Source: Escherichia phage VpaE1_ev035. From it: DNA of 64,000 nucleotides. The notes below the pieces were generated by a model that was given only the letters and a program-made list of their open reading frames with translations, ran no database searches and was not told the origin of the DNA. Below are positions 3,589-31,367 of this stretch, one piece after another. Each line of letters opens with the position of its first letter. Position 1 is the stretch's first letter. The position numbers and the translations under genes were made by a program. The stretch lies in the sequence record LR699048. The stretch is one strand, 5' to 3'.

Positions 3589-4137
3589 ATGAAGAAATTG
3601 ATTCTAGGTTTGTGCTTAATGTTTACAGCACAATTAGCTTATGCAGTTGACTGCCCAGAGCTATCAATTAGCCAAAAAGTAAACATGTTAAAAGCTTACC
3701 AGTATGGTGAGAATAACATGGGCAAAGGTTGGGGTATCACTCTAGCTGCTATAGCCTTACAAGAGTCAGAGTTAGGTCTGAAGGTAGAGAATAAAAAGAC
3801 ACACGATTATGGTATTTTCCAGAATCACTTGAAGACTGTTGTAAAGCGTAACAAAATTAGCCCTAATGTGGCTAAAAAGAAACTCTTAAGAGACTTTGAT
3901 TATGCTGCAAAAGAAACACATAAAGAGCTTGAGTTTTGGACAAAGGTACATGGTCAACCAAAGTCAAAGAAGACTTTACAAAAAGTTTTAGCATCTTATA
4001 ATGCTGGGTATTCATACAAAATTCCTAAAGCTAAGAAATATTCTCAAGATGTCTATAACAATATGAAAGTGATTGCTCAATGTGAATTTGCAACAAACAT
4101 TTCTAAGGTAAACCATGAAAAAATTAAGAAAGTCTGA
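3589..4137 (+). CDS. secreted lytic transglycosylase (SLT domain) with N-terminal signal peptide
   Basis: Signal-like N-terminus MKKLILGLCLMFTAQLAYA; SLT family motifs in order: ES (LQESELG), GIFQ (GLMQ-like), AYNAG; AGGAG RBS before ATG. Confidence 0.6.
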   Translation: MKKLILGLCLMFTAQLAYAVDCPELSISQKVNMLKAYQYGENNMGKGWGITLAAIALQESELGLKVENKKTHDYGIFQNHLKTVVKRNKISPNVAKKKLLRDFDYAAKETHKELEFWTKVHGQPKSKKTLQKVLASYNAGYSYKIPKAKKYSQDVYNNMKVIAQCEFATNISKVNHEKIKKV

Positions 4138-4810
4138 TGAAGTACTGTGCCATGCTTACGACTTGCACCCTCATGAGTTAGGTCTTGATTCCTGTGTATG
4201 GACTCCAGAACAGTGCAGGGATTTTGAAGATACTGCAAGAGAAGTTGTATGTTCACTTGAAGAGTTCCACACATCAGAACCAATTGTGAGCGTTGTGGAC
4301 AAAGAGACTGGACAAACTGTAGGCGTAAGGCGTGACAGCTTAGTCATAGTCAATAAAGACCTTGTAGAAAAAGGTAACCTTATCTTAGCAGACATTGATG
4401 GTGTTCTTACAAATTTTAATCACGAAGATTACTCAACGGAATTGATTGATGGGTCATTTTCACAGTACACTAATTTGCTTGACTCTGTAAGTGCAAAGCC
4501 AACGTATGTTTTCAATATCATTGATGCAATTGCTAATCATGCTGCCATTGGACTCTTGACAGCTAGAGGTGAATCTCAGAGAATCCCTACTGAGATGTTT
4601 TTAAGGCATTACATAGAGCATGATTACATGCTTTTTATGCGTGGTTTTGGAACTAACTCTATAAATGCAGAAAGTTTGAAAGTGAGGATGATTCAGTCTT
4701 GCATTCTTCCTTACTTTAATATAGTATGCTTTATAGAAGATACAGAGAAGAATGTTCAGAAGGTAAACAGAATCCTTCCACACATTAAAACCATGTTAGT
4801 TAAACATTGA
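4115..4810 (+). CDS. HAD-superfamily hydrolase-like protein (possible nucleotidase/phosphatase)
   Basis: ORF track; motif ADIDGVLT resembles HAD motif I (DxDG[TV]), LLTARG motif II-like; start uncertain (overlaps upstream gene). Confidence 0.4.
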   Translation: MKKLRKSDEVLCHAYDLHPHELGLDSCVWTPEQCRDFEDTAREVVCSLEEFHTSEPIVSVVDKETGQTVGVRRDSLVIVNKDLVEKGNLILADIDGVLTNFNHEDYSTELIDGSFSQYTNLLDSVSAKPTYVFNIIDAIANHAAIGLLTARGESQRIPTEMFLRHYIEHDYMLFMRGFGTNSINAESLKVRMIQSCILPYFNIVCFIEDTEKNVQKVNRILPHIKTMLVKH

Positions 4811-5296: not shown

Positions 5297-5321
5297 CAGG
5301 CTCCTTCGGGAGCCTTTTTCA
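5297..5321 (+). terminator. rho-independent terminator
   Basis: CAGGCTCC-TTCG-GGAGCCT followed by TTTTTC. Confidence 0.7.
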
Positions 5322-6426: not shown

Positions 6427-6739
6427 TGGAAGAGACTTTGTAGCCGTTTACTACGAGAAGGATAAAGAGGTTGGTGTAGCACAAGTAACCTACGGCAACG
6501 GTAAGTGGTTATATGGAACAATAGCAGTAGTAGGAACAAGAAGTGATACAAAAACCTTTAAAGATTGTGTTGACCTTCTTGAAGAATCCATCCAGAATCA
6601 TTGGTGTCTGATATGGATGACTGACAACGAAGTGATGGAGCGTTTCAAAAAGATTGATATCAACATTGACAGTATTGAGCATGTTGATTTATATGAACTA
6701 ACCGAAAAGGTAAGCTATGAAAGCTCTAGAGGTAATTGA
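6416..6739 (+). CDS. hypothetical protein
   Basis: ORF track frame 6377..6739; internal ATG at 6416 has AGAGGA RBS and overlaps upstream stop, chosen as likelier start. Confidence 0.4.
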   Translation: MQINGRDFVAVYYEKDKEVGVAQVTYGNGKWLYGTIAVVGTRSDTKTFKDCVDLLEESIQNHWCLIWMTDNEVMERFKKIDINIDSIEHVDLYELTEKVSYESSRGN

Positions 6740-6944
6740 CAAAGATACTGGAGAAGTTACATCAGCATGTGTTTTCGTGAGCCACGACACAGTGATACCG
6801 TTTTACAATCTCGATAGTTTTAGTTTTACAGGGATAACTCCAGAAGAATACTTTGAAGACCTTACCTTTGCCAGAATTTCTATAGATACATTCTATAAAT
6901 GCTTCTATGATGAAGGTAAAGAATTACGAGAAACTGAACTATAA
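6717..6944 (+). CDS. hypothetical protein
   Basis: ORF track. Confidence 0.4.
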   Translation: MKALEVIDKDTGEVTSACVFVSHDTVIPFYNLDSFSFTGITPEEYFEDLTFARISIDTFYKCFYDEGKELRETEL

Positions 6945-6956
6945 GGTGTATATTAT

Positions 6957-7157
6957 ATGGCTGACTTCTGCAAAGACTGTTCTATCGAAATGTTTGGACG
7001 TGATACAGGTGACTTAAAAGGTCTTATCACTGAAGATGACTTTAAAGCTGGTTATGCAATGCCAGTAATCTGTGAAGGTTGTGGGTGCATCTGGGTAGAC
7101 CATGAAGGGCAACGTGTAAAACCTTCAGAAGATAAAGAATCTTGGGAGAGATGTTAA
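6957..7157 (+). CDS. small zinc-ribbon protein
   Basis: Two Cys pairs CKDC ... CEGCGC in 66 aa. Confidence 0.45.
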   Translation: MADFCKDCSIEMFGRDTGDLKGLITEDDFKAGYAMPVICEGCGCIWVDHEGQRVKPSEDKESWERC

Positions 7158-7937
7158 ATGGGTATTGTAAAAGTTGTGAAAGGTAATTTACTGGCTGCCT
7201 TCAAAAACACAGACATTGAACTAATTGCTCATGGTTGCAACTGTCGTAATCTCATGGGTGCTGGAATCGCTCAAAAAATTGCTAAGATTTTCCCAAAAGC
7301 AGAAGAAGCTGACCGGAAATTCCATAAGAAGTTTGGCTATAGTGCTCATGATATCGGATACCAGATGATTGGTGAAGTGTCACATGCTCGAACGGAGTAC
7401 GGTTACATTTTTAATCTATACACACAGTTGGATGTTGGGAAGTGCGCATCATACCGATACTTAGTAGAGGCACTGGAAAAACTCCGCAAGTTTTGCTGGA
7501 TGAACTCTATCCGTAAAATTGGATTACCTATGATTGGTGCAGGTATTGGGGGTTTAGATGCGGAGGCTGTAAAAAGCATCATTAATAGTGTCATGCACAA
7601 TGTTGATGTGTACCTTTACGTCTATGATAAAGAGATGGCAAGTGTAGTTACCCCTAAGTATGCTACCTCAGCACCACAATTCTATGATGGTGTCGTGCTA
7701 AGTGACGGGAAGACCAATCAAGTTACCCTCTATCAACTTGTTGAAGGTAAGGTCGAGGTTAGTTACCCTCTGGTTAGTGAGATGGGTATGTGCAACAGTG
7801 AAATGTTCCCAGTTGACCCGTTTGGAAGATATGAAGGTGTATTCTTTGATAACTACCCAGCAGCGTACATCTACACAACAAATCAGGATGAAGTTCACTA
7901 CTTGCTGTATTCTAAAAAGTTCAAATTCATAAGCTGA
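7158..7937 (+). CDS. macro-domain protein (ADP-ribose binding/processing)
   Basis: Motifs VVKGNL...IAHGCNCRNLMGAGIAQKI, IGLPMIGAGIGGLD and VYLYVYD align with canonical macro-domain motifs (VVxGDIT...NAAN..L.GGGGV.GAI, FPAIS.G.YG.P, VYFVCYD). Confidence 0.75.
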   Translation: MGIVKVVKGNLLAAFKNTDIELIAHGCNCRNLMGAGIAQKIAKIFPKAEEADRKFHKKFGYSAHDIGYQMIGEVSHARTEYGYIFNLYTQLDVGKCASYRYLVEALEKLRKFCWMNSIRKIGLPMIGAGIGGLDAEAVKSIINSVMHNVDVYLYVYDKEMASVVTPKYATSAPQFYDGVVLSDGKTNQVTLYQLVEGKVEVSYPLVSEMGMCNSEMFPVDPFGRYEGVFFDNYPAAYIYTTNQDEVHYLLYSKKFKFIS

Positions 7938-7969
7938 TTAGTACTTCACAGTATCTACAAATCATCTAA

Positions 7970-8018
7970 GAAGGCTGCCTAACCCATTGAGAAATTTAAG
8001 GTAAGGCGGCCTTTTTCA
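7970..8018 (+). terminator. putative terminator (long-loop hairpin + T run)
   Basis: AGGCTGCC ... GGCGGCCT TTTTTC, arms as in terminator 3505 but 25-nt loop. Confidence 0.35.
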
Positions 8019-8084
8019 TTTTCAATTTGTGCAGGTATCTGTAGGGGTCTGCACAGATATCCCAAAAAATCTCATCGCCGGATA

Positions 8085-8156
8085 GAAAAATCATTTTCAA
8101 AACGTGCAGACCCCGCTCAGGTCGGGCAAGAAAAATCATTTTAGAATCGTGCAGGT
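8085..8156 (+). repeat. two direct repeats AGAAAAATCATTTT(C/A)(A/G)AA(A/T)CGTGCAG
   Basis: Copies at ~8085-8110 and ~8130-8156 in the intergenic region preceding the cassette array. Confidence 0.5.
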
Positions 8157-8175
8157 AGGTTTTTATAGAGAGCCA

Positions 8176-8245
8176 GACCAACCCCTCTCCCCCTCTTACT
8201 CCCCCTGTCTCTAGAGACAGCTCTTACTCCCCCTCTCCCCAAAAG
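8176..8245 (+). other. polypyrimidine (C/T-rich) tract with embedded perfect palindrome TGTCTCTAGAGACA
   Basis: CCCCTCTCCCCCTCTTACTCCCCCTGTCTCTAGAGACAGCTCTTACTCCCCCTCTCCCC. Confidence 0.5.
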
Positions 8246-8361
8246 TCAAGAGAAAAATTTGTAGCGGATTGAAAAATAATTCTTGATTTGTGTTCTGTTT
8301 TGTGGTAGTCGTGCGCGCCCGTTTCATTACAGTTTTTCCAAAAATATTTTTAAAATTTTTC

Positions 8362-8453
8362 TTGACTCTTTGAACGGGGTTATCTAGTATTTGCATCAAC
8401 GGGAGGGAATGACCTTCCTACTAAATAAAACCCTTAAACTAGGAGATTCAAAA
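8362..8453 (+). promoter_or_regulatory. type-A leader cassette: sigma70-like promoter (TTGACT-N17-TAGTAT) + 5' stem-loop + RBS
   Basis: -35 at 8362-8367, 17-nt spacer, -10 at 8385-8390; stem-loop GGGAGGGAATGACCTTCC; leader CTAAATAAAACCCTTAAACTAGGAGATTCAAAA. Confidence 0.5.
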
Positions 8454-8834
8454 ATGGCATATCGCGCACCTAAATTCATCAATAAAGACAACTTTCGCAA
8501 CGCACTGGAGAAGTCACTTGATGAAAATTTTAAAGGTAACATTATCGTTGTTCACGCATTCAATTTTAAGTATGATGTAAACGGGAATAGAATCAACCAT
8601 TACACGGCAACCATGTTAGATGGTACACTATCAAGTGAAAAAGCCGTACTGAATGCACTAGCAGGACGCGGAAAAGTATTAGTAAGATGCGATAAGCGAC
8701 GTTATCAGGGTGGCGCATATGGTTATGATGATGCTGTTTATCATCTTGAAAATATGGGCTATAAAGTAGAAAAAACTGGGGTATCGCAAATCATCGGGAG
8801 CGATGGTTATGTAACAATCTTCAAAATTAACTGA
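8454..8834 (+). CDS. hypothetical small protein (cassette array ORF 1)
   Basis: ATG preceded by conserved leader ...CTTAAACTAGGAGATTCAAAA; ORF track frame 8391..8834. Confidence 0.55.
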   Translation: MAYRAPKFINKDNFRNALEKSLDENFKGNIIVVHAFNFKYDVNGNRINHYTATMLDGTLSSEKAVLNALAGRGKVLVRCDKRRYQGGAYGYDDAVYHLENMGYKVEKTGVSQIIGSDGYVTIFKIN

Positions 8835-8924
8835 TAAAGTACTTTACAAGGGGCTTATAGTTCGATAGAGTAAGCCCCAGATAAAGAGCTTTACCACTCA
8901 ATCCTAAATTGGAGAATCTGAAAA
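8835..8924 (+). promoter_or_regulatory. type-B leader cassette: GGGGCTTA/TAAGCCCC hairpin + conserved leader with RBS
   Basis: Hairpin GGGGCTTATAGTTCGATAGAGTAAGCCCC then AGATAAAGAGCTTTACCACTCAATCCTAAATTGGAGAATCTGAAAA. Confidence 0.45.
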
Positions 8925-9218
8925 ATGGCTATTATCAAAAACGTTGTAATTACTGCAAAAACTCGTGATGACGCTCGCGTTATGGCTAAAAAGTTATGCG
9001 GGAAAGTTGTTGACAATGGGAAAAAATCTGCTGTAAGATGGGGCGTAAAGGTTGATAAACAGTTGAAGTTAAAAAATTCACCGATAAATCTTTTTACATG
9101 TGTAAACACTATCGGGAAGACAAATGTATACACGAAAAAGGCATACATTAGACGCGTAGCATTAACATCCCCCATTCGTACAATGAGAAGTTATGCAAAG
9201 CTGAAAATTAACAAATAA
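8925..9218 (+). CDS. hypothetical small protein (cassette array ORF 2)
   Basis: Conserved type-B leader with RBS directly upstream. Confidence 0.55.
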   Translation: MAIIKNVVITAKTRDDARVMAKKLCGKVVDNGKKSAVRWGVKVDKQLKLKNSPINLFTCVNTIGKTNVYTKKAYIRRVALTSPIRTMRSYAKLKINK

Positions 9219-9303
9219 AGTACTTTACAGGGGGCTTAAAAGTTGATATCTTAAGCCCCAGATAAAGAGCTTTACCACTCAATCCTAAACTGGAGATTCT
9301 AAA
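9219..9303 (+). promoter_or_regulatory. type-B leader cassette
   Basis: Same stem (GGGGCTTAA/TTAAGCCCC) with a different loop, same downstream leader. Confidence 0.45.
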
Positions 9304-9816
9304 ATGAAAACTGTAGACGCTACCTTTGAAGTTGTAAAAGAAAAATTTTCCATCATCTACGAAGCGGTAAATTGCTACGAAGCAAGCCATAATCTTGATA
9401 ATTGGGAATTTACAGATGACCATCAAGGCGGTGTGACGATTAAAAATCCTAGCTGTCAGCGTAATGAATTTAAATATGCAATCCCTTTACATTACAGCCT
9501 TAAACAGCTTTCAAGTGACTATGCAAAACAAGGCCGGGAAAACCCATCAAAAGAGGCTTACATCAGCTTACAGAAAGAACTAGAAAGAGATTTAGAGGCT
9601 TCAGAGTACAACCTTGCCGCGAAAGTTGTGGATGCAAACGGTAACACGGTTTTAGAAAGTTTTTATCTTGGTTATGCTTTCGATTGGTGCTATCGTGACG
9701 GCGATGATTTAGAGGATAGACTAAAAGAAGAGGTGAACAATTCAGACGCAGAAACTGAAGTATTAGAACGTTTGGAATCATTGAAAGATTCAGTGATGAA
9801 TATCTTTAAGAACTAA
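9304..9816 (+). CDS. hypothetical protein (cassette array ORF 3)
   Basis: Conserved type-B leader with RBS directly upstream. Confidence 0.55.
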   Translation: MKTVDATFEVVKEKFSIIYEAVNCYEASHNLDNWEFTDDHQGGVTIKNPSCQRNEFKYAIPLHYSLKQLSSDYAKQGRENPSKEAYISLQKELERDLEASEYNLAAKVVDANGNTVLESFYLGYAFDWCYRDGDDLEDRLKEEVNNSDAETEVLERLESLKDSVMNIFKN

Positions 9817-9908
9817 ATAGATTTCTTTACACGGGGTTATCAAGCTGGTAGGATAGCCCCAGATAGAGAGATTTATCAAATAAAGCCCTTAAACTAGGAG
9901 ATTCTAAA
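9817..9908 (+). promoter_or_regulatory. type-B leader cassette (variant)
   Basis: Hairpin GGGGTTATC...GATAGCCCC (compensatory changes) followed by leader ending CTTAAACTAGGAGATTCTAAA. Confidence 0.4.
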
Positions 9909-10205
9909 ATGAAATTATCAAATCAAGTGCGTGAAAATCTGAGCAAATTACTCAACAAAATTGATTTCATTGAAACATCAAGGAATAGCCATGATGTTAT
10001 GGAATGGTTACACGGCAAAATAAAAGGTCGTCGTGTAGTGATTTGCTTATGGAACAGTTGCAGGGAGTATAAAAAACCTGTATTACAAGTCAATATCTAT
10101 GATGATACTTTTAAAAGTCCAGTAAAGTCTAAAAGCGATTTATTAGAATCTTATGAGATATCTGTAAATGGCAAAGTATCACGTAAAGAGGTAACACCAT
10201 GTTAA
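9909..10205 (+). CDS. hypothetical small protein (cassette array ORF 4)
   Basis: Conserved leader variant upstream. Confidence 0.55.
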   Translation: MKLSNQVRENLSKLLNKIDFIETSRNSHDVMEWLHGKIKGRRVVICLWNSCREYKKPVLQVNIYDDTFKSPVKSKSDLLESYEISVNGKVSRKEVTPC

Positions 10206-10531
10206 TGACTGGTATCACTGCAATCATTGCCATTTTCGCGCTATATAAGGCGTATATAGCCTATAATCTAGCAAATAAGGCAATCACACAGCAGGTTAGA
10301 AATAACCTTGTAGAGAGCTTTCTAGGGCGTCTCAGTGATGAGCAAATAAAGCGGCTAGAGATGAGCTTCAGATACAAAGCGAAAACCTATCAGATAAGTG
10401 ACATCTTCAAAGATGATTTTCAGTTAGTCGATGATTATAATTCACTAATAAATGCTTTAAATATCAGTGACTTAAAAGACTACTACGCTGTAATTGTTCA
10501 AGAATTGAGCAAACGAAAACAAAGTGTTTGA
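10199..10531 (+). CDS. hypothetical membrane-associated small protein (cassette array ORF 5)
   Basis: ATG overlaps stop of previous ORF (ATGTTAATGA), N-terminal hydrophobic segment. Confidence 0.5.
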   Translation: MLMTGITAIIAIFALYKAYIAYNLANKAITQQVRNNLVESFLGRLSDEQIKRLEMSFRYKAKTYQISDIFKDDFQLVDDYNSLINALNISDLKDYYAVIVQELSKRKQSV

Positions 10532-10620
10532 CACTGATTTTTAGATAGGCTAAATTACACATCAACGGGGAGGGAATGACCTTCCCCACTAAATAAAGTC
10601 CTAAACTGGAGATTCTGAAA
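10528..10620 (+). promoter_or_regulatory. type-A leader cassette: promoter (TTGACA-N17-TAAATT) + stem-loop + RBS
   Basis: -35 10528-10533, -10 10551-10556; stem-loop GGGGAGGGAATGACCTTCCCC; conserved leader. Confidence 0.5.
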
Positions 10621-10779
10621 ATGTTTTGTGCAGGTGATAAAGTTGTCTGGAATGATATAGATGACGGTTTATGTACGAAAGTTGTTGTTATCCTAGAAAT
10701 TGATTATATCACTGGTGTTGCAACTGTAGCAGATAATGATATAATCTTTGATGTCTTAATTAGTGAACTGTCAAAATAA
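10621..10779 (+). CDS. hypothetical 52-aa protein (cassette array ORF 6, below ORF-track cutoff)
   Basis: Manual translation MFCAGDKVVWNDIDDG...SELSK; preceded by full type-A cassette (promoter, stem-loop, RBS). Confidence 0.45.
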   Translation: MFCAGDKVVWNDIDDGLCTKVVVILEIDYITGVATVADNDIIFDVLISELSK

Positions 10780-10804
10780 AACCCTTAAACTAGGAGCTTT
10801 TAAA

Positions 10805-11077
10805 ATGTACACTACTAACAACGGTCGCACCTTAAACGTAACCCTACGCCACTATGTGAACGGTGTAATGCACTTCGAGGATTTACAAGCTGAACAGCAC
10901 ATTTTGGATTGGCAAGTTGCAGGACTCCAAAAAACTGCTACAGGATACGGGAAAAAGATTCCAACCAGTTGGAAAGTATACTACGAAGGACGTTTGCGCA
11001 GAATTTATCAAGATGTGCAAAGCAATAGCGCATCGAGTTACATTATAGTAAAAGGCAAAAAACTGCATTTAATGTAA
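10805..11077 (+). CDS. hypothetical small protein (cassette array ORF 7)
   Basis: ATG after conserved CTTAAACTAGGAGCTTTTAAA leader; ORF track frame 10763..11077. Confidence 0.5.
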   Translation: MYTTNNGRTLNVTLRHYVNGVMHFEDLQAEQHILDWQVAGLQKTATGYGKKIPTSWKVYYEGRLRRIYQDVQSNSASSYIIVKGKKLHLM

Positions 11078-11163
11078 AGTACTTTACAAGGGGCTTATAG
11101 TTCGATAAAGTAAGCCCCAGATAAAGAGCTTTACTACTCAATCCTAAATTGGAGAACTTAAAA
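11078..11163 (+). promoter_or_regulatory. type-B leader cassette
   Basis: Near-identical to 8835-8924. Confidence 0.45.
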
Positions 11164-11568
11164 ATGGCTATTAATAACCGTGAATTATCAATTTTAAAAG
11201 CACGTTTGACCGTCAACAGGATTAATGTTCTGACATCATCAGCGCCTGATGAAACATTGCACAACATTATCGGGAAGATTCAAAGTGTTATCTTAGACGT
11301 TGAAAATGTAAAAAGTTCATTGGCTGACGTTGCATCAGGTATCACGCTAGACGGCGCGCAATATGAAATGTCAGACATGTTAGGCAAATCTAAGGTAATG
11401 AATAAAGAGTTAGATTTGAAAATGTTCCGATTTGCTGTTAAAGTGTGGTTATCTGTCGAGTATGATGCTAACTTTGCAATCGCTGACTTTTTCGCCACTT
11501 GGTTGCAGCGTAATTTGTCAAATCACGATTTTCGTAATATCTGCGATGCAATTTATGCAGAACTCTAA
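11164..11568 (+). CDS. hypothetical protein (cassette array ORF 8)
   Basis: ATG after type-B leader; ORF track frame 11149..11568. Confidence 0.55.
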   Translation: MAINNRELSILKARLTVNRINVLTSSAPDETLHNIIGKIQSVILDVENVKSSLADVASGITLDGAQYEMSDMLGKSKVMNKELDLKMFRFAVKVWLSVEYDANFAIADFFATWLQRNLSNHDFRNICDAIYAEL

Positions 11569-11587
11569 AAAAATTGTTGACACTTAT

Positions 11588-11669
11588 TTTTAGATAGATT
11601 AAATTACACATCAACGGGGAGGGATTAACCTTCCCCACTAAATAAAGTCCTTAAACTAGGAGATTCAAA
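11588..11669 (+). promoter_or_regulatory. type-A leader cassette: promoter (TTGACA-N17-TAAATT) + stem-loop + RBS
   Basis: -35 11588-11593, -10 11611-11616; stem-loop GGGGAGGGATTAACCTTCCCC. Confidence 0.5.
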
Positions 11670-11918
11670 ATGATGAATTTTTTAAATATCCCTGATACTT
11701 GCCGACTGTTGACGCAACCAGAAAATTTAGGCAAACCTTTCCTGTACCATATGCCAGACAATACACCAAAAACATATAGCTACACAGTTAACCGCTTTAC
11801 GGGTTACGCTGCAAAAAACGGTTACAAGGTTACTACTCAAAAAGTAACACTATTTACAAATATCGAAGAGCTTCCAACAATCGCTGTAAAACTAATATTT
11901 ACGAAGAAGACGCAATAA
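11670..11918 (+). CDS. hypothetical small protein (cassette array ORF 9)
   Basis: Full type-A cassette upstream. Confidence 0.5.
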   Translation: MMNFLNIPDTCRLLTQPENLGKPFLYHMPDNTPKTYSYTVNRFTGYAAKNGYKVTTQKVTLFTNIEELPTIAVKLIFTKKTQ

Positions 11919-12003
11919 AGTACTTTACAAGGGGCTTAAAAGTTGATATCTTAAGCCCCAGATAAAGAACTTTACCACTAAATCCTAAACTGGAGATTCT
12001 AAA
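11919..12003 (+). promoter_or_regulatory. type-B leader cassette
   Basis: Near-identical to 9219-9303. Confidence 0.45.
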
Positions 12004-12546
12004 ATGAAATGTTTTCACGGTACTACTCAAGAAAATTTCCTCAACCTGATTAATAACGGTGATAAACCATCAGGCGCATGGAATTGTTCGGATATGGACG
12101 GCAATTTTTACGTGTATCCAGAAAATAAAATCTATGGCGACGATGAGGAAGAAATAGCATCAGAGGGCATTCAGCAAGCTCTAGGTAATGCCACTATCAC
12201 CGCAGCTTTTCAGATGAAGACTCAAAATATTGTTATCTTAGAACTCGATATTCCAGAGGATGAGCTAAACGATGATTATTCTTGTGATAATATGTCGAGT
12301 GTAGCAAGTTTTACAGAGTACTTTGATGTAAATTGGATTAAAAAGGTCTATACAACAGAGTTTAACGCTATGTATTCACCTTTTTGTCTTCCTTCATTGG
12401 ATAACCCAAATTTAAACTATCTTGATGAGTCTCTGGAGCTTCTTGCTAAAAGTGTTCAACAGTCGGACAGTATTCAGGTTTTTTGTGACATCATGGATAC
12501 ACTGACAGGAAACATTGCAGAAGAGGATTTAAAGAGCTTTTTCTAA
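12004..12546 (+). CDS. hypothetical acidic protein (cassette array ORF 10)
   Basis: Type-B leader upstream. Confidence 0.55.
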   Translation: MKCFHGTTQENFLNLINNGDKPSGAWNCSDMDGNFYVYPENKIYGDDEEEIASEGIQQALGNATITAAFQMKTQNIVILELDIPEDELNDDYSCDNMSSVASFTEYFDVNWIKKVYTTEFNAMYSPFCLPSLDNPNLNYLDESLELLAKSVQQSDSIQVFCDIMDTLTGNIAEEDLKSFF

Positions 12547-12577
12547 AAACCTATACAATCACCTTATAAACACTAAT

Positions 12578-12600
12578 CAGCCCCTTGTAGGGGCTTTTAG
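12578..12600 (+). terminator. hairpin/weak terminator
   Basis: CAGCCCCT-TGT-AGGGGCT followed by TTTAG. Confidence 0.35.
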
Positions 12601-12612
12601 GGGGCTTAAATC

Positions 12613-12846
12613 ATGCTTACAACCGTTTACCTTATCCTTTCTATTTGTAATGGCCATTCATGTGATTTTAAAGGGCTTGAGGAGTTCACAGGAAGTAAAG
12701 AAAATGCTATTCAAGTTTGCCAGATAGCAAGGCAAGACTATCCCGCAAGTGATGATATTCAGTGTTACTTTAAGACAGAAGATGACGACGGAATCTATTT
12801 CGATAGTGTTGATGGTCAGTATGAGATTATCATTGAAAAAGACTAG
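12613..12846 (+). CDS. hypothetical small protein (cassette array ORF 11)
   Basis: ORF track; preceded by hairpin 12578-12596. Confidence 0.45.
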   Translation: MLTTVYLILSICNGHSCDFKGLEEFTGSKENAIQVCQIARQDYPASDDIQCYFKTEDDDGIYFDSVDGQYEIIIEKD

Positions 12847-12937
12847 ACAAGCCTGATAAAAGTCTGTAAATTGTCAATCAACGGGGAGGAAATGACCTCC
12901 CCCACTAAATAAAGTCCTTAAACTAGGAGATTCAAAA
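12847..12937 (+). promoter_or_regulatory. type-A leader cassette (no clear -35)
   Basis: TAAATTGTCAATCAACGGGGAGGAAATGACCTCCCCC + conserved leader. Confidence 0.4.
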
Positions 12938-13279
12938 ATGGCTTATGTAACCGTAATTACCGATAAAGCTGGCGCATCTTGGTCAACTCAAGTAAGTGAT
13001 AAGATGTCACCTATGCAGTGCCTAAAATACTTTGAACAGTGGAACAAAGGCGAGGACACAAGCCCCTTTCAAGTGATGCAGATTATCCATGTAGATAACG
13101 AAGGGAATAAAACGGTTTTAAATAGTGAGTACTACGCAAGCCGTTTTGAAACGAGAAGTAAAACAATGAAGCTTTTACGTGAATCCGGTTATGCCCATAT
13201 CGCCGCGTTAATCTGGGATGACCTGCTAAAAAACCAACGTATCAGCTATGTAAAACCTGAAAAAATATTCATCAGTTAA
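12938..13279 (+). CDS. hypothetical protein (cassette array ORF 12)
   Basis: Type-A stem-loop and leader upstream. Confidence 0.55.
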   Translation: MAYVTVITDKAGASWSTQVSDKMSPMQCLKYFEQWNKGEDTSPFQVMQIIHVDNEGNKTVLNSEYYASRFETRSKTMKLLRESGYAHIAALIWDDLLKNQRISYVKPEKIFIS

Positions 13280-26230: not shown

Positions 26231-26307
26231 CTCTGTTTAGCTCAGCTTGGTAGAGCGTTCCGTTTGGGGCGGTAAGGCCGGAGGTTCAAGTCCTCCAACA
26301 GAGACCA
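26231..26307 (+). tRNA. tRNA-Pro (anticodon UGG)
   Basis: Manual cloverleaf: acceptor CTCTGTT/AACAGAG (C1-G72), D-arm AGCTCAGCTTGGTAGAGC, loop UUUGGGG, T-arm GGAGG-TTCAAGT-CCTCC, encoded CCA. Confidence 0.75.
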
Positions 26308-26314
26308 AATTAAT

Positions 26315-26392
26315 GTTCCAGTGGACAAAATGGTAAAGTCACCACTCTTTCAAAGTGGATATTTGAGGGTTCAAATCCCTTCTGGAACGCCA
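26315..26392 (+). tRNA. tRNA-Glu (anticodon UUC)
   Basis: Acceptor GTTCCAG/CTGGAAC, anticodon stem CCACT/AGTGG with loop CUUUCAA, T-loop TTCAAAT, CCA. Confidence 0.75.
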
Positions 26393-26397
26393 GTTTT

Positions 26398-26475
26398 GAC
26401 AGAAGACCAATTACAGCAAGTTTAATCTTATTCATCTGAAGGTAAATCGGACAAAGAAGAGATTTGGTCTGGTCA
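26398..26475 (+). ncRNA. conserved structured tRNA-spacer element, copy 1
   Basis: 5' box GACAGAAGACCAATTACAGCAAG and 3' box TTTGGTCTGGTC fold as lower helix GAC/GUC, internal loop AGA opposite G, upper helix AGACCAA/UUGGUCU; ~43-nt apical region. Confidence 0.45.
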
Positions 26476-26483
26476 TTAAGAAT

Positions 26484-26560
26484 TGCGGGTATAGAGAAAT
26501 GGCGTCTCACATGTCTCATTAGCATGGTATCGGCAGGTTCGACTCCTGCACCCGCCTCCA
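26484..26560 (+). tRNA. tRNA-Met or Ile2 (anticodon CAU), non-canonical 1:72 pair
   Basis: Anticodon stem CATGT/GCATG, loop CUCAUUA; T-arm GCAGG-TTCGACT-CCTGC; acceptor pairs 6/7 with position 1 unpaired; CCA. Confidence 0.55.
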
Positions 26561-26564
26561 ATTT

Positions 26565-26629
26565 TGCAGAAGACCGTATTCAGCAACAAAATACTTTTTG
26601 CGGATAAAAGAAAAAACACGGTCTGGCAA
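26565..26629 (+). ncRNA. conserved structured tRNA-spacer element, copy 2
   Basis: 5' box TGCAGAAGACCGTATTCAGCAAC, 3' box ACACGGTCTGGCA; lower helix UGC/GCA (compensatory vs copy 1), same AGA/G internal loop, upper helix AGACCGU/ACGGUCU. Confidence 0.45.
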
Positions 26630-26637
26630 TGTATTAA

Positions 26638-26714
26638 GGTTAGGAAGCACATAAGGTATGTGCGGTCGCCTGTTAAGCGAATGGCACAGGGTTCGAATCC
26701 CTGACTAACCGCCA
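26638..26714 (+). tRNA. tRNA-Asn (anticodon GUU)
   Basis: Acceptor GGTTAGG/ACTAACC, D-stem GCAC/GTGC, loop CUGUUAA, T-arm CAGGG-TTCGAAT-CCCTG, CCA. Confidence 0.75.
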
Positions 26715-26783
26715 AATTTAGGAGAGAAGCGATTGCTCACCGATTTGTAAGGTGCAAGTCCTTAGCCTGAATAGAAATTAAAT

Positions 26784-26871
26784 GTGTCGTTATCCCGTAG
26801 ATGGTAGCGGTGGGGACTGTAAATCCCTTGTCATTGAGACTCGGTAGGTTCGACTCCTACACGGCACACCA
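26784..26871 (+). tRNA. tRNA-Tyr (anticodon GUA), long variable arm
   Basis: Acceptor GTGTCGT/ACGGCAC, anticodon stem GGGA/TCCC with loop CUGUAAA, ~16-nt variable arm, T-arm GTAGG-TTCGACT-CCTAC, CCA. Confidence 0.7.
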
Positions 26872-26876
26872 ATAAA

Positions 26877-26954
26877 GGTTATGTAGTTTAATTTGGTTAA
26901 AATACTCCCCTGTCACGGGAGATGATGAGGGTTCAAATCCCTTCGTAACCGCCA
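26877..26954 (+). tRNA. tRNA-Asp (anticodon GUC)
   Basis: Acceptor GGTTATG/CGTAACC, anticodon stem CTCCC/GGGAG with loop CUGUCAC, T-loop TTCAAAT, CCA. Confidence 0.75.
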
Positions 26955-27012
26955 ATTTTGAGAGGGCTATTTAGCCCCTCCCTTAAAGGGTTCTTACGAG
27001 TATCCTTTAAAG

Positions 27013-27092
27013 GAGCAGAAGACCAAATACAGCAAGTTACTTAAAATTTCAAGCCAATTTAATTTTGAAAAATTTAAAACTTGGTCTGGCTC
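27013..27092 (+). ncRNA. conserved structured tRNA-spacer element, copy 3
   Basis: 5' box GAGCAGAAGACCAAATACAGCAAG, 3' box CTTGGTCTGGCTC; lower helix GAGC/GCUC, AGA/G internal loop, upper helix AGACCAA/UUGGUCU. Confidence 0.45.
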
Positions 27093-27097
27093 AACAA

Positions 27098-27236
27098 ATT
27101 TACAGAAGACCGTTTACAGCAAAACTTAAACAATCTATTTCTCGGTAAAGAAAAGGCGAAGGTTCGATTCCTTCACTCGGCAGATGTCGAGTTGGTGTAA
27201 TGGTAGCACTTAAGATGATAAACAACGGTCTGGTAA
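27098..27236 (+). ncRNA. conserved structured tRNA-spacer element, copy 4, enclosing a circularly permuted tRNA-like module (Y RNA/YrlA-like architecture)
   Basis: 5' box TTTACAGAAGACCGTTTACAGCAA, 3' box AACGGTCTGGTAA (lower helix UUAC/GUAA, upper helix 8 bp); apical region 27158-27210 holds T-arm GAAGG-TTCGATT-CCTTC, then acceptor 3' strand ACTCGGC joined by a short loop to acceptor 5' strand GTCGAGT, then D-arm GTG-TAATGGTAG-CAC; no anticodon arm. Confidence 0.45.
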
Positions 27237-27382
27237 TTATCTTTGTAGATAAGTTATTAAGCTTACCTGTGAGTATGCGACCACAAAGGGTGAAAGGGTA
27301 AATTCTAGATTTAAACCCAAAAAGGCACATCGCTACAGACCTTAAGCAAGTCTGGGTAGCTTATCTACAAAGATAATTTAAT

Positions 27383-27458
27383 GGAAGTGTAGCAGAATGG
27401 TGATGCGGCAGACTTTTAATCTGACAGGCGATGGGTTCGAATCCCTCCACTTCTACCA
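27383..27458 (+). tRNA. tRNA-Lys (anticodon UUU)
   Basis: Acceptor GGAAGTG/CACTTCT, loop CUUUUAA, T-loop TTCGAAT, CCA; T-stem has mismatches. Confidence 0.6.
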
Positions 27459-27462
27459 ATAT

Positions 27463-27539
27463 GGTTCAGTCGCAGATAAGGTAATGCAAGGGTCTCGTAA
27501 GCCCTATGAATGTGGGTTCGAATCCCATCTGAACCTCCA
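27463..27539 (+). tRNA. tRNA-Thr (anticodon CGU)
   Basis: Acceptor GGTTCAG/CTGAACC, anticodon stem AGGGT/GCCCT with loop CUCGUAA, T-arm GTGGG-TTCGAAT-CCCAT, CCA. Confidence 0.7.
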
Positions 27540-27541
27540 AT

Positions 27542-27616
27542 TGTGGGTTAGCATAAATGGTAATGCAAACGGCTGATAACCGTTAGAAGAGGGTTCGATA
27601 CCCTCACCTACAACCA
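27542..27616 (+). tRNA. tRNA-Ile (anticodon GAU)
   Basis: Acceptor TGTGGGT/ACCTACA, anticodon stem AACGG/CCGTT with loop CUGAUAA, T-arm GAGGG-TTCGATA-CCCTC, CCA. Confidence 0.7.
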
Positions 27617-27631
27617 AGTTCAATAAAGTTG

Positions 27632-27660
27632 TTGACATTGAGATGTGACTACTTTATAGT
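27632..27660 (+). promoter_or_regulatory. sigma70-like promoter inside tRNA array (TTGACA-N17-TATAGT)
   Basis: -35 27632-27637, 17-nt spacer, -10 27655-27660. Confidence 0.5.
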
Positions 27661-27864
27661 AACCTTAGTTTTCGTTGCGTAGCGTCTATTTTGCAAATTT
27701 AAAATAAATGCAAACGACAATGTTTTTCTGGCAGTAGCTTGATAGGCTAAACACCAGTGAGGTCTTCCAATCCCTCATCAAAGAATTTGGCGTACTCGCC
27801 CACGGTATGATTAATAAGGTGGGCATCTTTAAGGGCTTTCTAAGAGAGTCTTTAAAGATAATTA

Positions 27865-27946
27865 CGGGGCGTATCTCAGCGGTCTTCTAAACCGCCGTTA
27901 ACCGAGTAAGTGGAGTATGCGGGTTCGAGTCCTGCCGCCTCGACCA
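27865..27946 (+). tRNA. tRNA-Arg-like (anticodon UCU) with aberrant D-arm and enlarged variable region
   Basis: Acceptor CGGGGCG/CGCCTCG, anticodon stem GCGGT/ACCGC with loop CUUCUAA, T-arm GCGGG-TTCGAGT-CCTGC, CCA; D-region does not fold canonically. Confidence 0.45.
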
Positions 27947-28089
27947 ATTTAGTTAGCAGATTACTTAGACGACCTAAGCGGGTCTTCCTGTAGGGAGGTG
28001 GTCTGTATCTCATGTTTTCCAGAACATGTAAATAATCTGAGAAGGGGCTTTACAGTGTTGAGATAATACGGTAAGCTTCGAATTATAGT

Positions 28090-28172
28090 ATGGGACGATG
28101 TTAAGACTCTAAGGCATGAGCAACGGCCTCCAAAACCGTTTCAAAGGGGTTCAACTCCTCCGTCCCATGCCA
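28090..28172 (+). tRNA. tRNA-Trp (anticodon CCA) with expanded D-region
   Basis: Perfect 7-bp acceptor ATGGGAC/GTCCCAT, anticodon loop CUCCAAA (as in E. coli tRNA-Trp), T-loop TTCAACT, CCA; ~6 extra nt before the anticodon stem. Confidence 0.5.
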
Positions 28173-28185
28173 AAGTCTTATTAGG

Positions 28186-28275
28186 GGTAGGTAGCGGCTA
28201 ATGGTAGCCAAACTGTCTTGAAAACAGTTGCCACTGTAGAGATACGGTGAGGGTTCGACTCCTTTACTTACCGCC
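28186..28275 (+). tRNA. tRNA-Ser (anticodon UGA), long variable arm, CCA apparently not encoded
   Basis: Acceptor GGTAGGT/ACTTACC, D-stem GGC/GCC, anticodon stem ACTGT/ACAGT with loop CUUGAAA, long variable arm, T-loop TTCGACT. Confidence 0.6.
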
Positions 28276-28531
28276 TAATAAGATTTAAAGCCAAGCTTCA
28301 TTCGGATGTTGCTTTGGTATCCCTCGTGTATTGTCGTACACGCACAGTAAAGCACCTAGTAGGTGTCACGGAGAAGAGATAATATCAAGCTCTCCAAAGG
28401 TTCTAGTCACCGGATTAAACAAGACTATGCAAAGACCAAATTAGGTCTTTTTAGAGGGCTTCTAAGGTTATTACAGCTTGTTGTGGAACCTTGTTGCTTA
28501 GGTTCTTAGAAGTTCTCTAAAAAGATTTAAT

Positions 28532-28609
28532 GGGAGATTGATGGTAATTGGTAAACCTATCTCGCTTAGAACGAGATGTTTGAGGGTTCGAATCCCTTGT
28601 CTCCTACCA
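28532..28609 (+). tRNA. tRNA with Leu anticodon UAG but short variable arm (type-I architecture)
   Basis: Acceptor GGGAGAT/GTCTCCT, anticodon stem TCTCG/CGAGA with loop CUUAGAA, 5-nt variable loop, T-arm GAGGG-TTCGAAT-CCCTT, A73, CCA. Confidence 0.55.
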
Positions 28610-28616
28610 AATTAAT

Positions 28617-28692
28617 GCAGGTGTAGCAAAATGGTTATGCGGCTGACTCTTAATCAGTAAGACGATGGGTTCAATTCCCTCCACCTGTACCA
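28617..28692 (+). tRNA. tRNA-Lys (anticodon CUU)
   Basis: Acceptor GCAGGTG/CACCTGT, anticodon stem GCTGA/TCAGT with loop CUCUUAA, T-loop TTCAATT, CCA. Confidence 0.55.
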
Positions 28693-28698
28693 AAAAAT

Positions 28699-28774
28699 GG
28701 GGTCATAGTTTATATGGTTAAAATTCGAGTTTTGCAAACTTGGGAACTGAGTTCAATTCTCAGTGACTCCACCA
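28699..28774 (+). tRNA. tRNA-Ala (anticodon UGC)
   Basis: Acceptor GGGGTCA/TGACTCC, loop UUUGCAA, T-arm CTGAG-TTCAATT-CTCAG, CCA. Confidence 0.7.
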
Positions 28775-28780
28775 ATTAGT

Positions 28781-28855
28781 GCATCCATAGTTTAAACGGG
28801 AAAATTACAGTCTTCCAAACTGAGGTTGAGGGTTCGATTCCCTCTGGATGCTCCA
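28781..28855 (+). tRNA. tRNA-Gly (anticodon UCC)
   Basis: Perfect acceptor GCATCCA/TGGATGC, loop CUUCCAA, T-arm GAGGG-TTCGATT-CCCTC, CCA. Confidence 0.75.
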
Positions 28856-28861
28856 AATAAT

Positions 28862-28937
28862 GCTCCTATCGTATAATTGGCTATTACGGTTGCCTTGTAA
28901 GCAACTTATCAGGGTTCGAATCCTTGTGGGAGCACCA
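28862..28937 (+). tRNA. tRNA-Thr (anticodon UGU)
   Basis: Acceptor GCTCCTA/TGGGAGC, anticodon stem GTTGC/GCAAC with loop CUUGUAA, T-arm CAGGG-TTCGAAT-CCTTG, CCA. Confidence 0.75.
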
Positions 28938-29032
28938 ATTCAGAGGTCAAGTGAAAGACCGCTGGTGTCAACTGAAGACCGTAACAAATTCCACGGAGTT
29001 GAGTTAGCGGCACAACTTCAGACCTCTTTCAC
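28938..29032 (+). ncRNA. candidate structured RNA between tRNA-Thr(UGU) and tRNA-Val
   Basis: Multiple complementary segments (GAGGTC/GACCTC, GTGAAAG/CTTTCAC, CTGAAG/CTTCAG); contains a GAAGACCG box related to the spacer elements; no tRNA fold. Confidence 0.3.
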
Positions 29033-29107
29033 ACTCGCTTAGTTTATATGGTAAAACATCACCCTTACAAGATGAAGAAAAAGGTTCAAGTCCTTTAGTG
29101 AGTACCA
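29033..29107 (+). tRNA. tRNA-Val (anticodon UAC)
   Basis: Acceptor ACTCGCT/AGTGAGT, loop CUUACAA, T-arm AAAGG-TTCAAGT-CCTTT, CCA. Confidence 0.65.
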
Positions 29108-29108
29108 T

Positions 29109-29186
29109 GTTCCAGTATCCCAATTGGCAGAGGATGCAAGCTCAAACCTTGTACTAGTGACGGTTCGAATCCGTCTTGGAACACCA
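29109..29186 (+). tRNA. tRNA with Leu anticodon CAA but short variable arm (type-I architecture)
   Basis: Acceptor GTTCCAG/TTGGAAC, anticodon stem GCAAG/CTTGT with loop CUCAAAC, T-arm GACGG-TTCGAAT-CCGTC, A73, CCA. Confidence 0.55.
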
Positions 29187-29191
29187 ATTTT

Positions 29192-29267
29192 GCAGGATTA
29201 GTTCAAATGGATAGAGCAACAGTCTACGAAGCTGTTAATAGGGGTTCGAATCCCTTATCCTGCACCA
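29192..29267 (+). tRNA. tRNA-Arg (anticodon ACG)
   Basis: Perfect acceptor GCAGGAT/ATCCTGC, D-arm GTTCAAATGGATAGAGC, loop CUACGAA, T-arm AGGGG-TTCGAAT-CCCTT, CCA. Confidence 0.8.
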
Positions 29268-29285
29268 GATAAGCAAGAGGAATTT

Positions 29286-29528
29286 ATGCAAACATTAATC
29301 GTCGTTGAACATGAAAATTCCAATAGTATTGAGTTTGTAAGGGTTCCCACTATAGATACCCACATTTTCTTAAAAGTCGGATGGGAATGCGACCCAATAA
29401 AAGTAGAAAGATTTATTGGTCATTGCTTTGGTGGAAGACAACTTAAAAGTGTCAATTTTGAGACAATGTTACCAGAAAGCTCAGAAACAAGTAATAATGC
29501 TTACCTCCTTACGAGGGTTAGACAATGA
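29286..29528 (+). CDS. hypothetical protein (inside tRNA array)
   Basis: ORF track, ATG with AGAGG RBS. Confidence 0.4.
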   Translation: MQTLIVVEHENSNSIEFVRVPTIDTHIFLKVGWECDPIKVERFIGHCFGGRQLKSVNFETMLPESSETSNNAYLLTRVRQ

Positions 29529-30082
29529 GATACTTAAAATATGCTTCATGGATTTTCTTAGCTTTGCTAGAACCACTTGCAGCAATACTAGCAGTTATCT
29601 TAGCACCTTTCGTAGTTCCATTCTACAGTGAGAAGAAAGGACATCTACCTTTTGGATTCAGATGGATGGAGACCTATGACAACCCAATTGATGGTGATGA
29701 AGGTCACGTTAAAAGATGGGCTAATATTAGATGGATTGGTAAACTAGGTGTCTACATGCAAAGAGTTGGATGGCTCTGGAGAAACAAAGCTTATAACTTC
29801 TCTTACCATGTGTTAGGAAGAGATGTAAAAGATGTTACTAAGTGGAAAGGTAATATCAACGTAAGTTCTAACCCTGAAGATAATCAGACTGGTTATCTCC
29901 TAATGTGGAACAGGAATGCTTGGGGATTATTCGCTTTTATCCCATCAATTAAAATCTTTGGTAAACAATTTTACTGGAGAATTTATATTGGATGGAAACT
30001 AAAAAGTGTTGTCCCAGAAGAAAGAGCATTCTCAAGGGAAAGAGTTATGTTGGCATTCTTTATTCATCCACTGAGAAAGTAA
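29525..30082 (+). CDS. hypothetical membrane protein (inside tRNA array)
   Basis: N-terminal hydrophobic segment IFLALLEPLAAILAVILAPFVV; Trp-rich. Confidence 0.45.
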   Translation: MRYLKYASWIFLALLEPLAAILAVILAPFVVPFYSEKKGHLPFGFRWMETYDNPIDGDEGHVKRWANIRWIGKLGVYMQRVGWLWRNKAYNFSYHVLGRDVKDVTKWKGNINVSSNPEDNQTGYLLMWNRNAWGLFAFIPSIKIFGKQFYWRIYIGWKLKSVVPEERAFSRERVMLAFFIHPLRK

Positions 30083-30090
30083 AGATTTAA

Positions 30091-30166
30091 AGGGGATTAG
30101 TTTACAAGGTTAAAACCTCGGTCTTTGAAATCGAAGAAGTTGGTTCAATTCCAACATCCCCCGCCA
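30091..30166 (+). tRNA. tRNA-Gln (anticodon UUG)
   Basis: Acceptor AGGGGAT/ATCCCCC (1:72 unpaired), anticodon stem TCGGT/ATCGA with loop CUUUGAA, T-arm GTTGG-TTCAATT-CCAAC, CCA. Confidence 0.65.
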
Positions 30167-30168
30167 AT

Positions 30169-30247
30169 GCTCCATTACTCCAATTGGCAGAGAGGCCAGA
30201 CTTAAAATCTGTGTTATGTATCGGTTCGAATCCGATATGGAGTACCA
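30169..30247 (+). tRNA. tRNA with Leu anticodon UAA but short variable arm (type-I architecture)
   Basis: Acceptor GCTCCAT/ATGGAGT, anticodon stem CCAGA/TCTGT with loop CUUAAAA, T-arm ATCGG-TTCGAAT-CCGAT, A73, CCA. Confidence 0.55.
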
Positions 30248-30252
30248 AATTT

Positions 30253-30328
30253 AGCGGTATAGCATAACTGGCAATGCAGCAGTCTCTGAAGCTGTCTTAT
30301 TAAGGTTCAAATCCTTATGCCGCTGCCA
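30253..30328 (+). tRNA. tRNA-Gln (anticodon CUG)
   Basis: Acceptor AGCGGTA/TGCCGCT, anticodon stem GCAGT/GCTGT (two G-U pairs) with loop CUCUGAA, T-arm TAAGG-TTCAAAT-CCTTA, CCA. Confidence 0.6.
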
Positions 30329-30359
30329 CTTCTAAGGGTTCTTACGAGAGTCCTTAAAT

Positions 30360-30435
30360 GTGGCCTTATCATAAATGGTAATGACCCATGCTGTGAACAT
30401 GGTCTATACGGGTTCAAATCCCGTAGGTCACCCCA
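30360..30435 (+). tRNA. tRNA-His (anticodon GUG)
   Basis: Acceptor GTGGCCT/AGGTCAC, perfect anticodon stem CCATG/CATGG with loop CUGUGAA, T-arm ACGGG-TTCAAAT-CCCGT, discriminator C73, CCA. Confidence 0.75.
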
Positions 30436-30440
30436 ATTTA

Positions 30441-30517
30441 TAGTCCAAGTAGCTTATATGGTTAAAGCGCGTGTCTGAAAAACATGAGAAGAGGGTTCAA
30501 ATCCCACTGGACTACCA
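30441..30517 (+). tRNA. tRNA-Phe (anticodon GAA)
   Basis: Acceptor TAGTCCA/TGGACTA, anticodon stem CGTGT/ACATG with loop CUGAAAA, T-loop TTCAAAT; exact ends uncertain. Confidence 0.6.
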
Positions 30518-30533
30518 ATTTCAAAGGTGCTTA

Positions 30534-31268: not shown

Positions 31269-31269
31269 T

Positions 31270-31360: not shown

Positions 31361-31367
31361 CAATTTT

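Follow-up and report, generated by a model that had tools for sequence, protein, structure and literature searches.

Escherichia phage VpaE1_ev035 (sequence record LR699048) carries, in the 64,000-nucleotide stretch analyzed here (the window), a gene whose product joins a macro domain of the TARG1/DarG fold to an orphan C-terminal domain. The source phage is a Felixounavirus, a FelixO1-like myovirus, and the 3-kb stretch around the gene shares 92–95% DNA identity with many Escherichia and Salmonella Felixounavirus genomes. The macro domain has a glutamine-type active site, and its closest characterized relative is Tk.4 of phages T4 and T2. We propose that it removes DarT2-type ADP-ribose from phage DNA, a function to which we assign about an even chance. 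The open reading frame (ORF) is exactly the one originally described from the DNA letters (7158..7937, + strand, 259 amino acids, ATG start).

The macro domain, first recognized by its motifs, is borne out by profile searches. Residues 25–141 lie on positions 2–117 of the 118 positions of the Pfam profile Macro (PF01661; E = 3.1e-7) with a score of 30.8 bits, above the gathering cut-off of 22 bits. The PHROG 335 profile covers the full-length protein (E = 2e-86), and the sole match among 5027 defense-system models (PADLOC) is DarG (58 bits, E = 2.3e-16), residues 4–165 being placed on profile positions 2–152 of 329, that is, on the macro half only. Sequence matches in the PDB are to TARG1/OARD1 (6e-9) and the Thermus aquaticus DarG macro domain (8e-7), with further matches to the M. 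tuberculosis DarG macro domain, Poa1p and SCO6735 (E = 1e-3). The AlphaFold2 model, for which 21 family sequences were used, has a mean predicted local distance difference test score (pLDDT) of 85 and a predicted template modeling score (pTM) of 0.85. It displays a three-layer alpha/beta macro fold, for which the best Foldseek matches are TARG1 and T. aquaticus DarG (probability 1.00, target-normalized TM-score 0.73–0.78); viral macro domains are also matched with probability 1.00. Structure prediction, proposed as a check along with the original prediction, thus yields a macro fold of TARG1/DarG type.

The second proposed check concerned the catalytic residues, and by these residues the active site is not dead. 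His25, Gly26, Asn28, Gln90, Gly127 and Gly129 are invariant in 21 family members, as are the ADP-ribose-binding glycine loops G34-A35-G36 and G127-A-G129-I-G-G132, including G132. Asn28, in the catalytic loop, aligns with the loop-1 asparagine of DarG (N22, by the numbering offset obtained from the chain and from the K80 and W83 positions) and with N23 of PhiKZ AdfM, whose mutation lowers activity (PMC13309987); it is the equivalent of Asn27 in SCO6735. Gln90 belongs to an invariant NLYTQ motif and falls on K80 of DarG and K84 of TARG1, both in a joint alignment and in pairwise BLAST, while T2 Tk.4 has the same glutamine. The DarG chain numbering derived in this way agrees with the published positions of K80 and W83. 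The diphosphate-binding loop aligns with PPLGAGNGGL of DarG and PRIGCGLD of TARG1. In this loop, Asp125 of TARG1 corresponds to Gly131, and DarG likewise has a glycine there.

The absence of the lysine is not the sign of a dead enzyme, because SCO6735 is active with Gln85 at the same position. This protein cleaves ADP-ribose off thymidine in DNA and gives protection from the toxicity of DarT (PMC9411070). The residues that matter in it are His24, the backbone of Val25, Asn27, Gln85 and Gly126/128: Gln85 is essential, as Q85A abolishes all activity, Asn27 holds Gln85, Gly128 matters, and catalysis is proposed to begin with a water molecule bound by the backbone of Val25 (PMC9411070). The correspondence of residues with SCO6735 is transitive, established through DarG and TARG1 and the equivalences given in PMC9411070. 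On this basis, His25-Gly26-Cys27-Asn28 are spaced as His24-Val25-x-Asn27, and the invariant residues of the family match the Gln-type site. The loop that follows Gln90 reads LDVGKCA and has one lysine (K95); the extended mobile loop of SCO6735 has Lys89 and Lys94 for DNA binding.

The link to defense comes from Tk.4. The macro protein is 34% identical to T2 Tk.4 over 156 residues (E = 9e-24), and Tk.4 also belongs to PHROG 335 (E = 1.3e-65). A transposon screen that used DarTG2 hosts gave tk.4 as its only significant T4 hit, and a clean tk.4 knockout made T4 sensitive to DarTG2, upon which the gene was renamed adfM, for “anti-DarT factor macrodomain” (preprint 10.1101/2025.11.20.689424). Earlier work had found T4 without adfA and adfN to be still DarTG2-resistant. 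The other protein called AdfM, gp104 of phage PhiKZ, strips DarT2-made ADP-ribose off a TNTC oligonucleotide DNA in vitro (PMC13309987); hydrolysis of thymidine-linked ADP-ribose is demonstrated for PhiKZ AdfM (PMC13309987) as well as for SCO6735 (PMC9411070). The two proteins of that name fall into different sub-clades, PhiKZ gp104 having a DarG-type PTK motif, and Tk.4 and the macro protein YTQ. The suggestion, made with the original prediction, that a phage macro domain could reverse host ADP-ribosylation defenses thus gains support by precedent, in that T4 needs Tk.4 for DarTG2 resistance.

Based on the above data, we propose that the gene product is an orphan phage-borne ADP-ribosylglycohydrolase of the Tk.4/AdfM type. 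The macro domain probably binds the ADP-ribose that a host DarT2-type toxin puts on thymidine of single-stranded phage DNA. Hydrolysis of the base–ribose bond would restore replication and defeat a DarTG2-type abortive defense. The reaction would follow the Gln-type route of SCO6735, in which Gln90, kept in place by Asn28, would position the distal ribose while a water molecule bound to the backbone acts; the lysine-based chemistry of DarG and TARG1 would play no part. The C-terminal domain may be a lineage-specific accessory module, possibly touching the toxin or the phage replication machinery. The macro fold, the homology to Tk.4, DarG and TARG1, the pattern of active-site residues, the orphan status and the evolutionary pattern are observed here; the substrate, the phenotype and the role of the C-terminal domain are inferred. 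Allele replacement and intragenic mosaicism at the locus, described below, are as expected for a counter-defense gene.

Several points weigh against this proposal. The identity to Tk.4 is only 34%, and the substrate specificity of macro domains shifts easily; the evidence on Tk.4 is itself genetic, in a preprint and without biochemistry (10.1101/2025.11.20.689424). In DarG, Trp83 stacks on the thymine (PMC9967889), and this tryptophan is not kept here, the aligned residue being Val93. Residues 29–35 of the catalytic loop are modeled with low confidence (pLDDT < 50), and the C-terminal domain has no assigned function. Our literature search found no experiment on any Felixounavirus (or Bas63) with DarTG2. 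Finally, it has been argued from a comparative-genomics survey that the majority of phage macro domains have small ADP-ribose derivatives, rather than adducts on macromolecules, as their substrates (PMC9503650).

The same survey predicts low-molecular-weight ADP-ribose signals to be the main targets of phage macro domains (PMC9503650), and the macro domains of type II Thoeris ThsA bind His-ADPR (10.64898/2026.06.04.730250). The protein could accordingly destroy or sequester immune signals derived from ADP-ribose (gcADPR or His-ADPR of Thoeris, for example), without any DNA repair. We consider this improbable: no ThsA-type macro domain is matched above DarG and TARG1 by sequence or fold, and Tk.4, the nearest characterized homologue, scored specifically against DarTG2. 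A small-molecule role of another kind, in NAD/ADP-ribose metabolism, which the original prediction raised as an alternative, is unlikely too, if somewhat less so. In that case the protein would be an ADP-ribose-1''-phosphate phosphatase like Poa1p, or an O-acetyl-ADP-ribose deacetylase, and would clear by-products of RNA repair or of the turnover of nicotinamide adenine dinucleotide (NAD) beside the NAD-salvage and PNKP-like genes of the phage. Public records do use the terms “phosphatase”, “Poa1p-like” and “O-acetyl-ADP-ribose deacetylase”, Poa1p structures are matched at E ~1e-4, the genome has Prs, Nampt and “NAD synthetase”, and the PNKP-like gene, about 2.4 kb upstream, is syntenic even in distant relatives. 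However, the Poa1p match spans residues 1–61 only and is far weaker than those to TARG1, DarG and Tk.4. The “phosphatase/Poa1p” annotation, which we rejected, appears to be transferred from domain names, as about 60 N-terminal residues align and not the full length. The linkage of the genes is little informative because the whole region is syntenic, and no Tpt1/KptA or sirtuin gene was seen near the macro gene. As for the NAD-salvage genes themselves, Escherichia phage EcoM2 has, upstream of the window start, a “NAD synthetase” (L005:11966-12463), and ribose-phosphate pyrophosphokinase and nicotinamide phosphoribosyltransferase at L005:23195-25905. This set may act beside the macro protein against NAD-targeting defenses.

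Reversal of RNA or protein ADP-ribosylation, and not of that on DNA, would involve either base modification of RNA of the CmdT or DarT type or protein-modifying ADP-ribosyltransferases of the host or the phage. SCO6735 is also active on protein ADP-ribosylated through an Asp/Glu linkage (PMC9411070), and RNA ADP-ribosylation systems such as CmdTAC defend against phage (PMC11833690). Yet SCO6735 is inactive on 2'-OH RNA ADP-ribosylation, macro-domain hydrolases are inactive on guanosine-linked RNA ADP-ribosylation, and a phage ADP-ribosyltransferase gene is absent from the roughly 45 kb of annotation inspected. Such a role has a small chance of being the right one. The protein might, lastly, be a non-catalytic ADP-ribose reader or sponge whose real function lies in the C-terminal domain. 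The canonical catalytic lysine of DarG and TARG1 is absent, and one record names the protein a “high-affinity ADP-ribose binding module”. A Gln-type site is nevertheless active in SCO6735, the residues for such a mechanism are all invariant in the family, and Tk.4, with the same motif, gives a resistance phenotype, so that we regard a purely binding role as very improbable.

The C-terminal extension of about 100 amino acids (residues ~160–259), which the original prediction had left without a function, is real: it is found in the same position in 20 homologues, and fold, profile and exhaustive sequence searches assign it no function. Only this fused domain lacks an explanation; the macro part is of an ordinary kind. 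The domain is confidently predicted within the full protein and, modeled alone, has a pLDDT of 87 and a pTM of 0.80. Within alleles its ratio of nonsynonymous to synonymous substitution rates (dN/dS) is 0.07–0.13, which reflects purifying selection and shows that the domain is functional; for the gene as a whole the ratio is 0.04–0.13, with both domains under purifying selection. Across the family, in contrast, the C-terminal domain is only 9–29% identical compared with 42–55% for the macro domain, these ranges leaving out the same-allele copy P0001 (95% and 98% identical). Its sole conserved motif, P173-x-x-(F/Y)-D-G178, stands at the start of the domain. Pfam, NCBIfam and PHROGs give no match to the domain beyond its own family, and a BFVD fold search returns the SUSP2 orthologue only. 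A profile search of 1.84 billion representative proteins retrieved only family members, shortened copies and repeat proteins, and the latter (PQQ-type propeller blades and a low-complexity repeat) were judged to be motif-level noise. The start of the domain, residues 171–195 (7668–7742, SAPQFYDGVVLSDGKTNQVTLYQL), resembles one blade of a PQQ-type beta-propeller (SSPAVxDGxVYVGSxDGxVYAL), and this blade-like start gives multi-stretch matches to propeller proteins in the exhaustive search; the likeness probably stems from a shared beta-hairpin motif rather than from homology.

The net charge of the C-terminal domain ranges from -5 to +4 across homologues. This variation, together with the divergence, makes a conserved DNA-binding or DNA-mimic surface unlikely, and a conserved nucleic-acid-binding surface of any such kind finds no support. 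A variable partner-binding surface is plausible instead. The rapid divergence, the variable charge and the exchange of the domain as a separate module suggest a role in specificity or partner binding. We can go further and envisage a toxin-binding or specificity module whose origin is independent of the DarT-binding domain of DarG. The Ounavirinae protein would in that case mimic an antitoxin in two ways, by erasing the DNA mark and by contacting the ADP-ribosyltransferase or another host factor. An arms race with different DarT2 variants or other toxins would have left its trace in the deeply divergent alleles exchanged at one locus and in the module-level recombination at the domain junction. 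This extended scenario is speculative, and we hold it to be possible but doubtful.

The two-domain architecture is confined to Ounavirinae-type phages of about 85–90 kb, namely Felixounavirus, Mooglevirus and Hafnia and Erwinia relatives. The order rIIA, rIIB, PNKP-like gene, small ORFs and macro gene is held even in the most distant members, and the MGIVK N-terminus is kept in all homologues. At this syntenic locus, VpaE1_ev035 has a minority allele in place of the common one. Of some 250 phage records with coverage of 80% or more of the protein, only 12 have the minority allele at 90% identity or more, and the rest match at about 41%; the corresponding protein clusters have 96 members for the minority allele versus 1060 for the common one. 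The DNA of phage JN01 is 95% identical in the flank up to 6723, similarity is lost from 7302 to 8090 and it returns at 8091, the macro proteins of the two phages being 41% identical. Against Salmonella phage Si3 (L001:5001-5780), 46 nucleotide differences fall in gene positions 1–477 and one in 478–780, which places a recombination breakpoint at the junction of the macro and C-terminal domains.

Two further variable pieces flank the gene. An ORF of 75 amino acids at 6717–6944, with no Pfam match, has no DNA similarity in JN01; the gap there, at 6724–6951, makes it a second variable cassette just upstream. The downstream intergenic region (7938–8390) is unusually long (~450 bp), is replaced along with the allele and contains a 39-nucleotide direct repeat (8071–8109 and 8116–8154).

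The macro gene lies downstream of rIIA, rIIB and the gene called polynucleotide kinase in relatives, in the rII/early-gene part of the genome, from which we infer the timing of its expression. The TAA stop codon (7155–7157) of an upstream ORF of 66 amino acids abuts the ATG, which suggests that the macro gene is translationally coupled to it. The hairpin that follows the macro gene folds better than every one of 200 shuffled sequences (0/200 fold as well), and its tail is like that of the upstream terminator. These two terminator-like hairpins make the macro gene the last of its transcription unit, which starts with spanin genes. The features are collected in the table.

Features of the macro protein gene and its surroundings (positions in the window)
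Feature	Position	Strand	Basis or remark
Complete gene of the two-domain macro protein	7158..7937	+	ORF list; 259 codons, ATG start, TGA stop
Macro domain, residues 1-160, TARG1/DarG/Tk.4 class	7158..7637	+	Pfam, PADLOC, Foldseek, Tk.4 identity
Codon of Asn28, invariant asparagine of the catalytic loop	7239..7241	+	Alignment; invariant in 21 sequences
Codon of Gln90 in the invariant NLYTQ motif	7425..7427	+	Alignments; position of the catalytic lysine
Codons of Gly127-Gly132 (GAGIGG), diphosphate-binding loop	7536..7553	+	Alignment
Orphan C-terminal domain, residues ~172-259	7671..7934	+	Six beta-strands and two short helices (predicted)
Shine-Dalgarno sequence GGGAGAG	7144..7150	+	Read from the sequence; 7 nt before the ATG
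Terminator-like hairpin, then U-rich tract	7968..8016	+	RNA fold -23.1 kcal/mol, z = -4.4
Terminator-like hairpin	5298-5315		Upstream of the macro gene

The ten neighboring ORFs encode small phage proteins without a Pfam match, and no toxin, ADP-ribosyltransferase or DarT domain is found among them; Rfam gives no family match in the surrounding 9 kb. The 66-residue product of the ORF just upstream (6957–7157) has paired cysteines (CxxC ... CxxCxC) that look like a zinc ribbon by eye, and no Pfam match. Its DNA is about 85% identical in phages with the other macro allele, and the 66-residue product may be functionally linked to the macro protein. Farther upstream, an ORF of 231 amino acids (4115–4810) is syntenic with the “polynucleotide kinase” genes of relatives; it has no Pfam match at E <= 0.01, and distant relatives show weak or faint PNKP-type HAD matches. 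Elsewhere in the window, 8390–13000 is a run of small ORFs, each after a repeated cassette composed of a TTGACA-type promoter, a hairpin (GGGGAGGG...CCTTCCCC) and a conserved leader (AAATAAAGTCCTTAAACTAGGAGATTCAAAAATG). With repeat families D1–D3 in 3–5 copies each, this run has the appearance of an expression module for early genes that is repeated several times. On the + strand, 25 tRNA genes are clustered at 26231–31443.

The macro assignment itself is not new: over 250 public phage records already label the gene product as a phosphatase or macro-domain protein, which limits the practical gain to a modest one. T4 and PhiKZ have already furnished examples of the functional class. We found no description of the lineage-specific orphan C-terminal domain or of its modular, fast evolution. 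Among phage counter-defenses, orphan enzymes that resemble antitoxins are emerging as a class (AdfN, AdfM). If the removal of DarT2-type ADP-ribose is confirmed, the Tk.4-type AdfM family would extend to the Ounavirinae, which are widely used in Salmonella and E. coli biocontrol and typing, and the finding would help to predict which DarTG2-carrying hosts are open to these phages. The family is also a naturally occurring set of Gln-type macro domains in which lysine-independent cleavage of thymidine-linked ADP-ribose can be studied. Its C-terminal domain is small, is predicted to fold with confidence and has no known relatives, and its rapid evolution points to a partner-specific interaction.

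Comparison with known systems places the protein next to Tk.4 and apart from the DarG antitoxins. T. aquaticus DarG shares the macro fold, 29% identity (E = 1e-13), the loop-1 asparagine and the glycine-rich loop, and the DarG structures compared, from T. aquaticus and M. tuberculosis (PDB 5M31, 5M3E and 5M3I), give target-normalized Foldseek TM-scores of 0.73–0.76. However, DarG has a catalytic Lys80 where Gln90 stands here, as well as Trp83, a DarT-binding half and a darT partner. Orthology with DarG was rejected: with the NCBIfam equivalog NF048014 the protein reaches 56.5 bits, far below the cut-off of 250, it has glutamine for lysine and no neighboring darT, and its C-terminal domain has no match to the DarT-binding half. 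Another lead, “AdfN-Bas60” as a Felixounavirus with an anti-DarTG1 NADAR protein, failed because Bas60-62 are Vequintavirinae. Human TARG1/OARD1 (PDB 4J5R and 4J5S) is the top PDB match by both sequence and fold, but is a eukaryotic, single-domain protein with a Lys84/Asp125 pair that aligns with Gln90 and Gly131.

PhiKZ gp104 is, like the macro protein, an orphan phage macro domain that keeps the catalytic-site asparagine; it differs in being of the lysine type, 23% identical (E = 4e-4), single-domain and imported into the phage nucleus. The score with the DarG model is 133 bits for gp104, versus 58 for the macro protein and 36 for Tk.4. SCO6735 of Streptomyces coelicolor (PDB 5E3B) shares the Gln-type site, with His24/Val25/Asn27/Gln85/Gly128 corresponding to His25/Gly26/Asn28/Gln90/Gly129, and is likewise an orphan enzyme unpaired with DarT. 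Unlike the macro protein, it is bacterial, DNA-damage-induced and single-domain, and its sequence match is weak; its lysine-bearing mobile loop appears to be longer. Tk.4 is also a single domain, of 155 amino acids compared with 259 here, and does not have the extra domain of about 90 amino acids. It is nonetheless, as is the macro protein, an orphan phage macro domain with FNLYTQ and P-x-IGAGIG motifs and glutamine at the position of the catalytic lysine, encoded among the early or accessory genes of a virulent enterobacterial myovirus.

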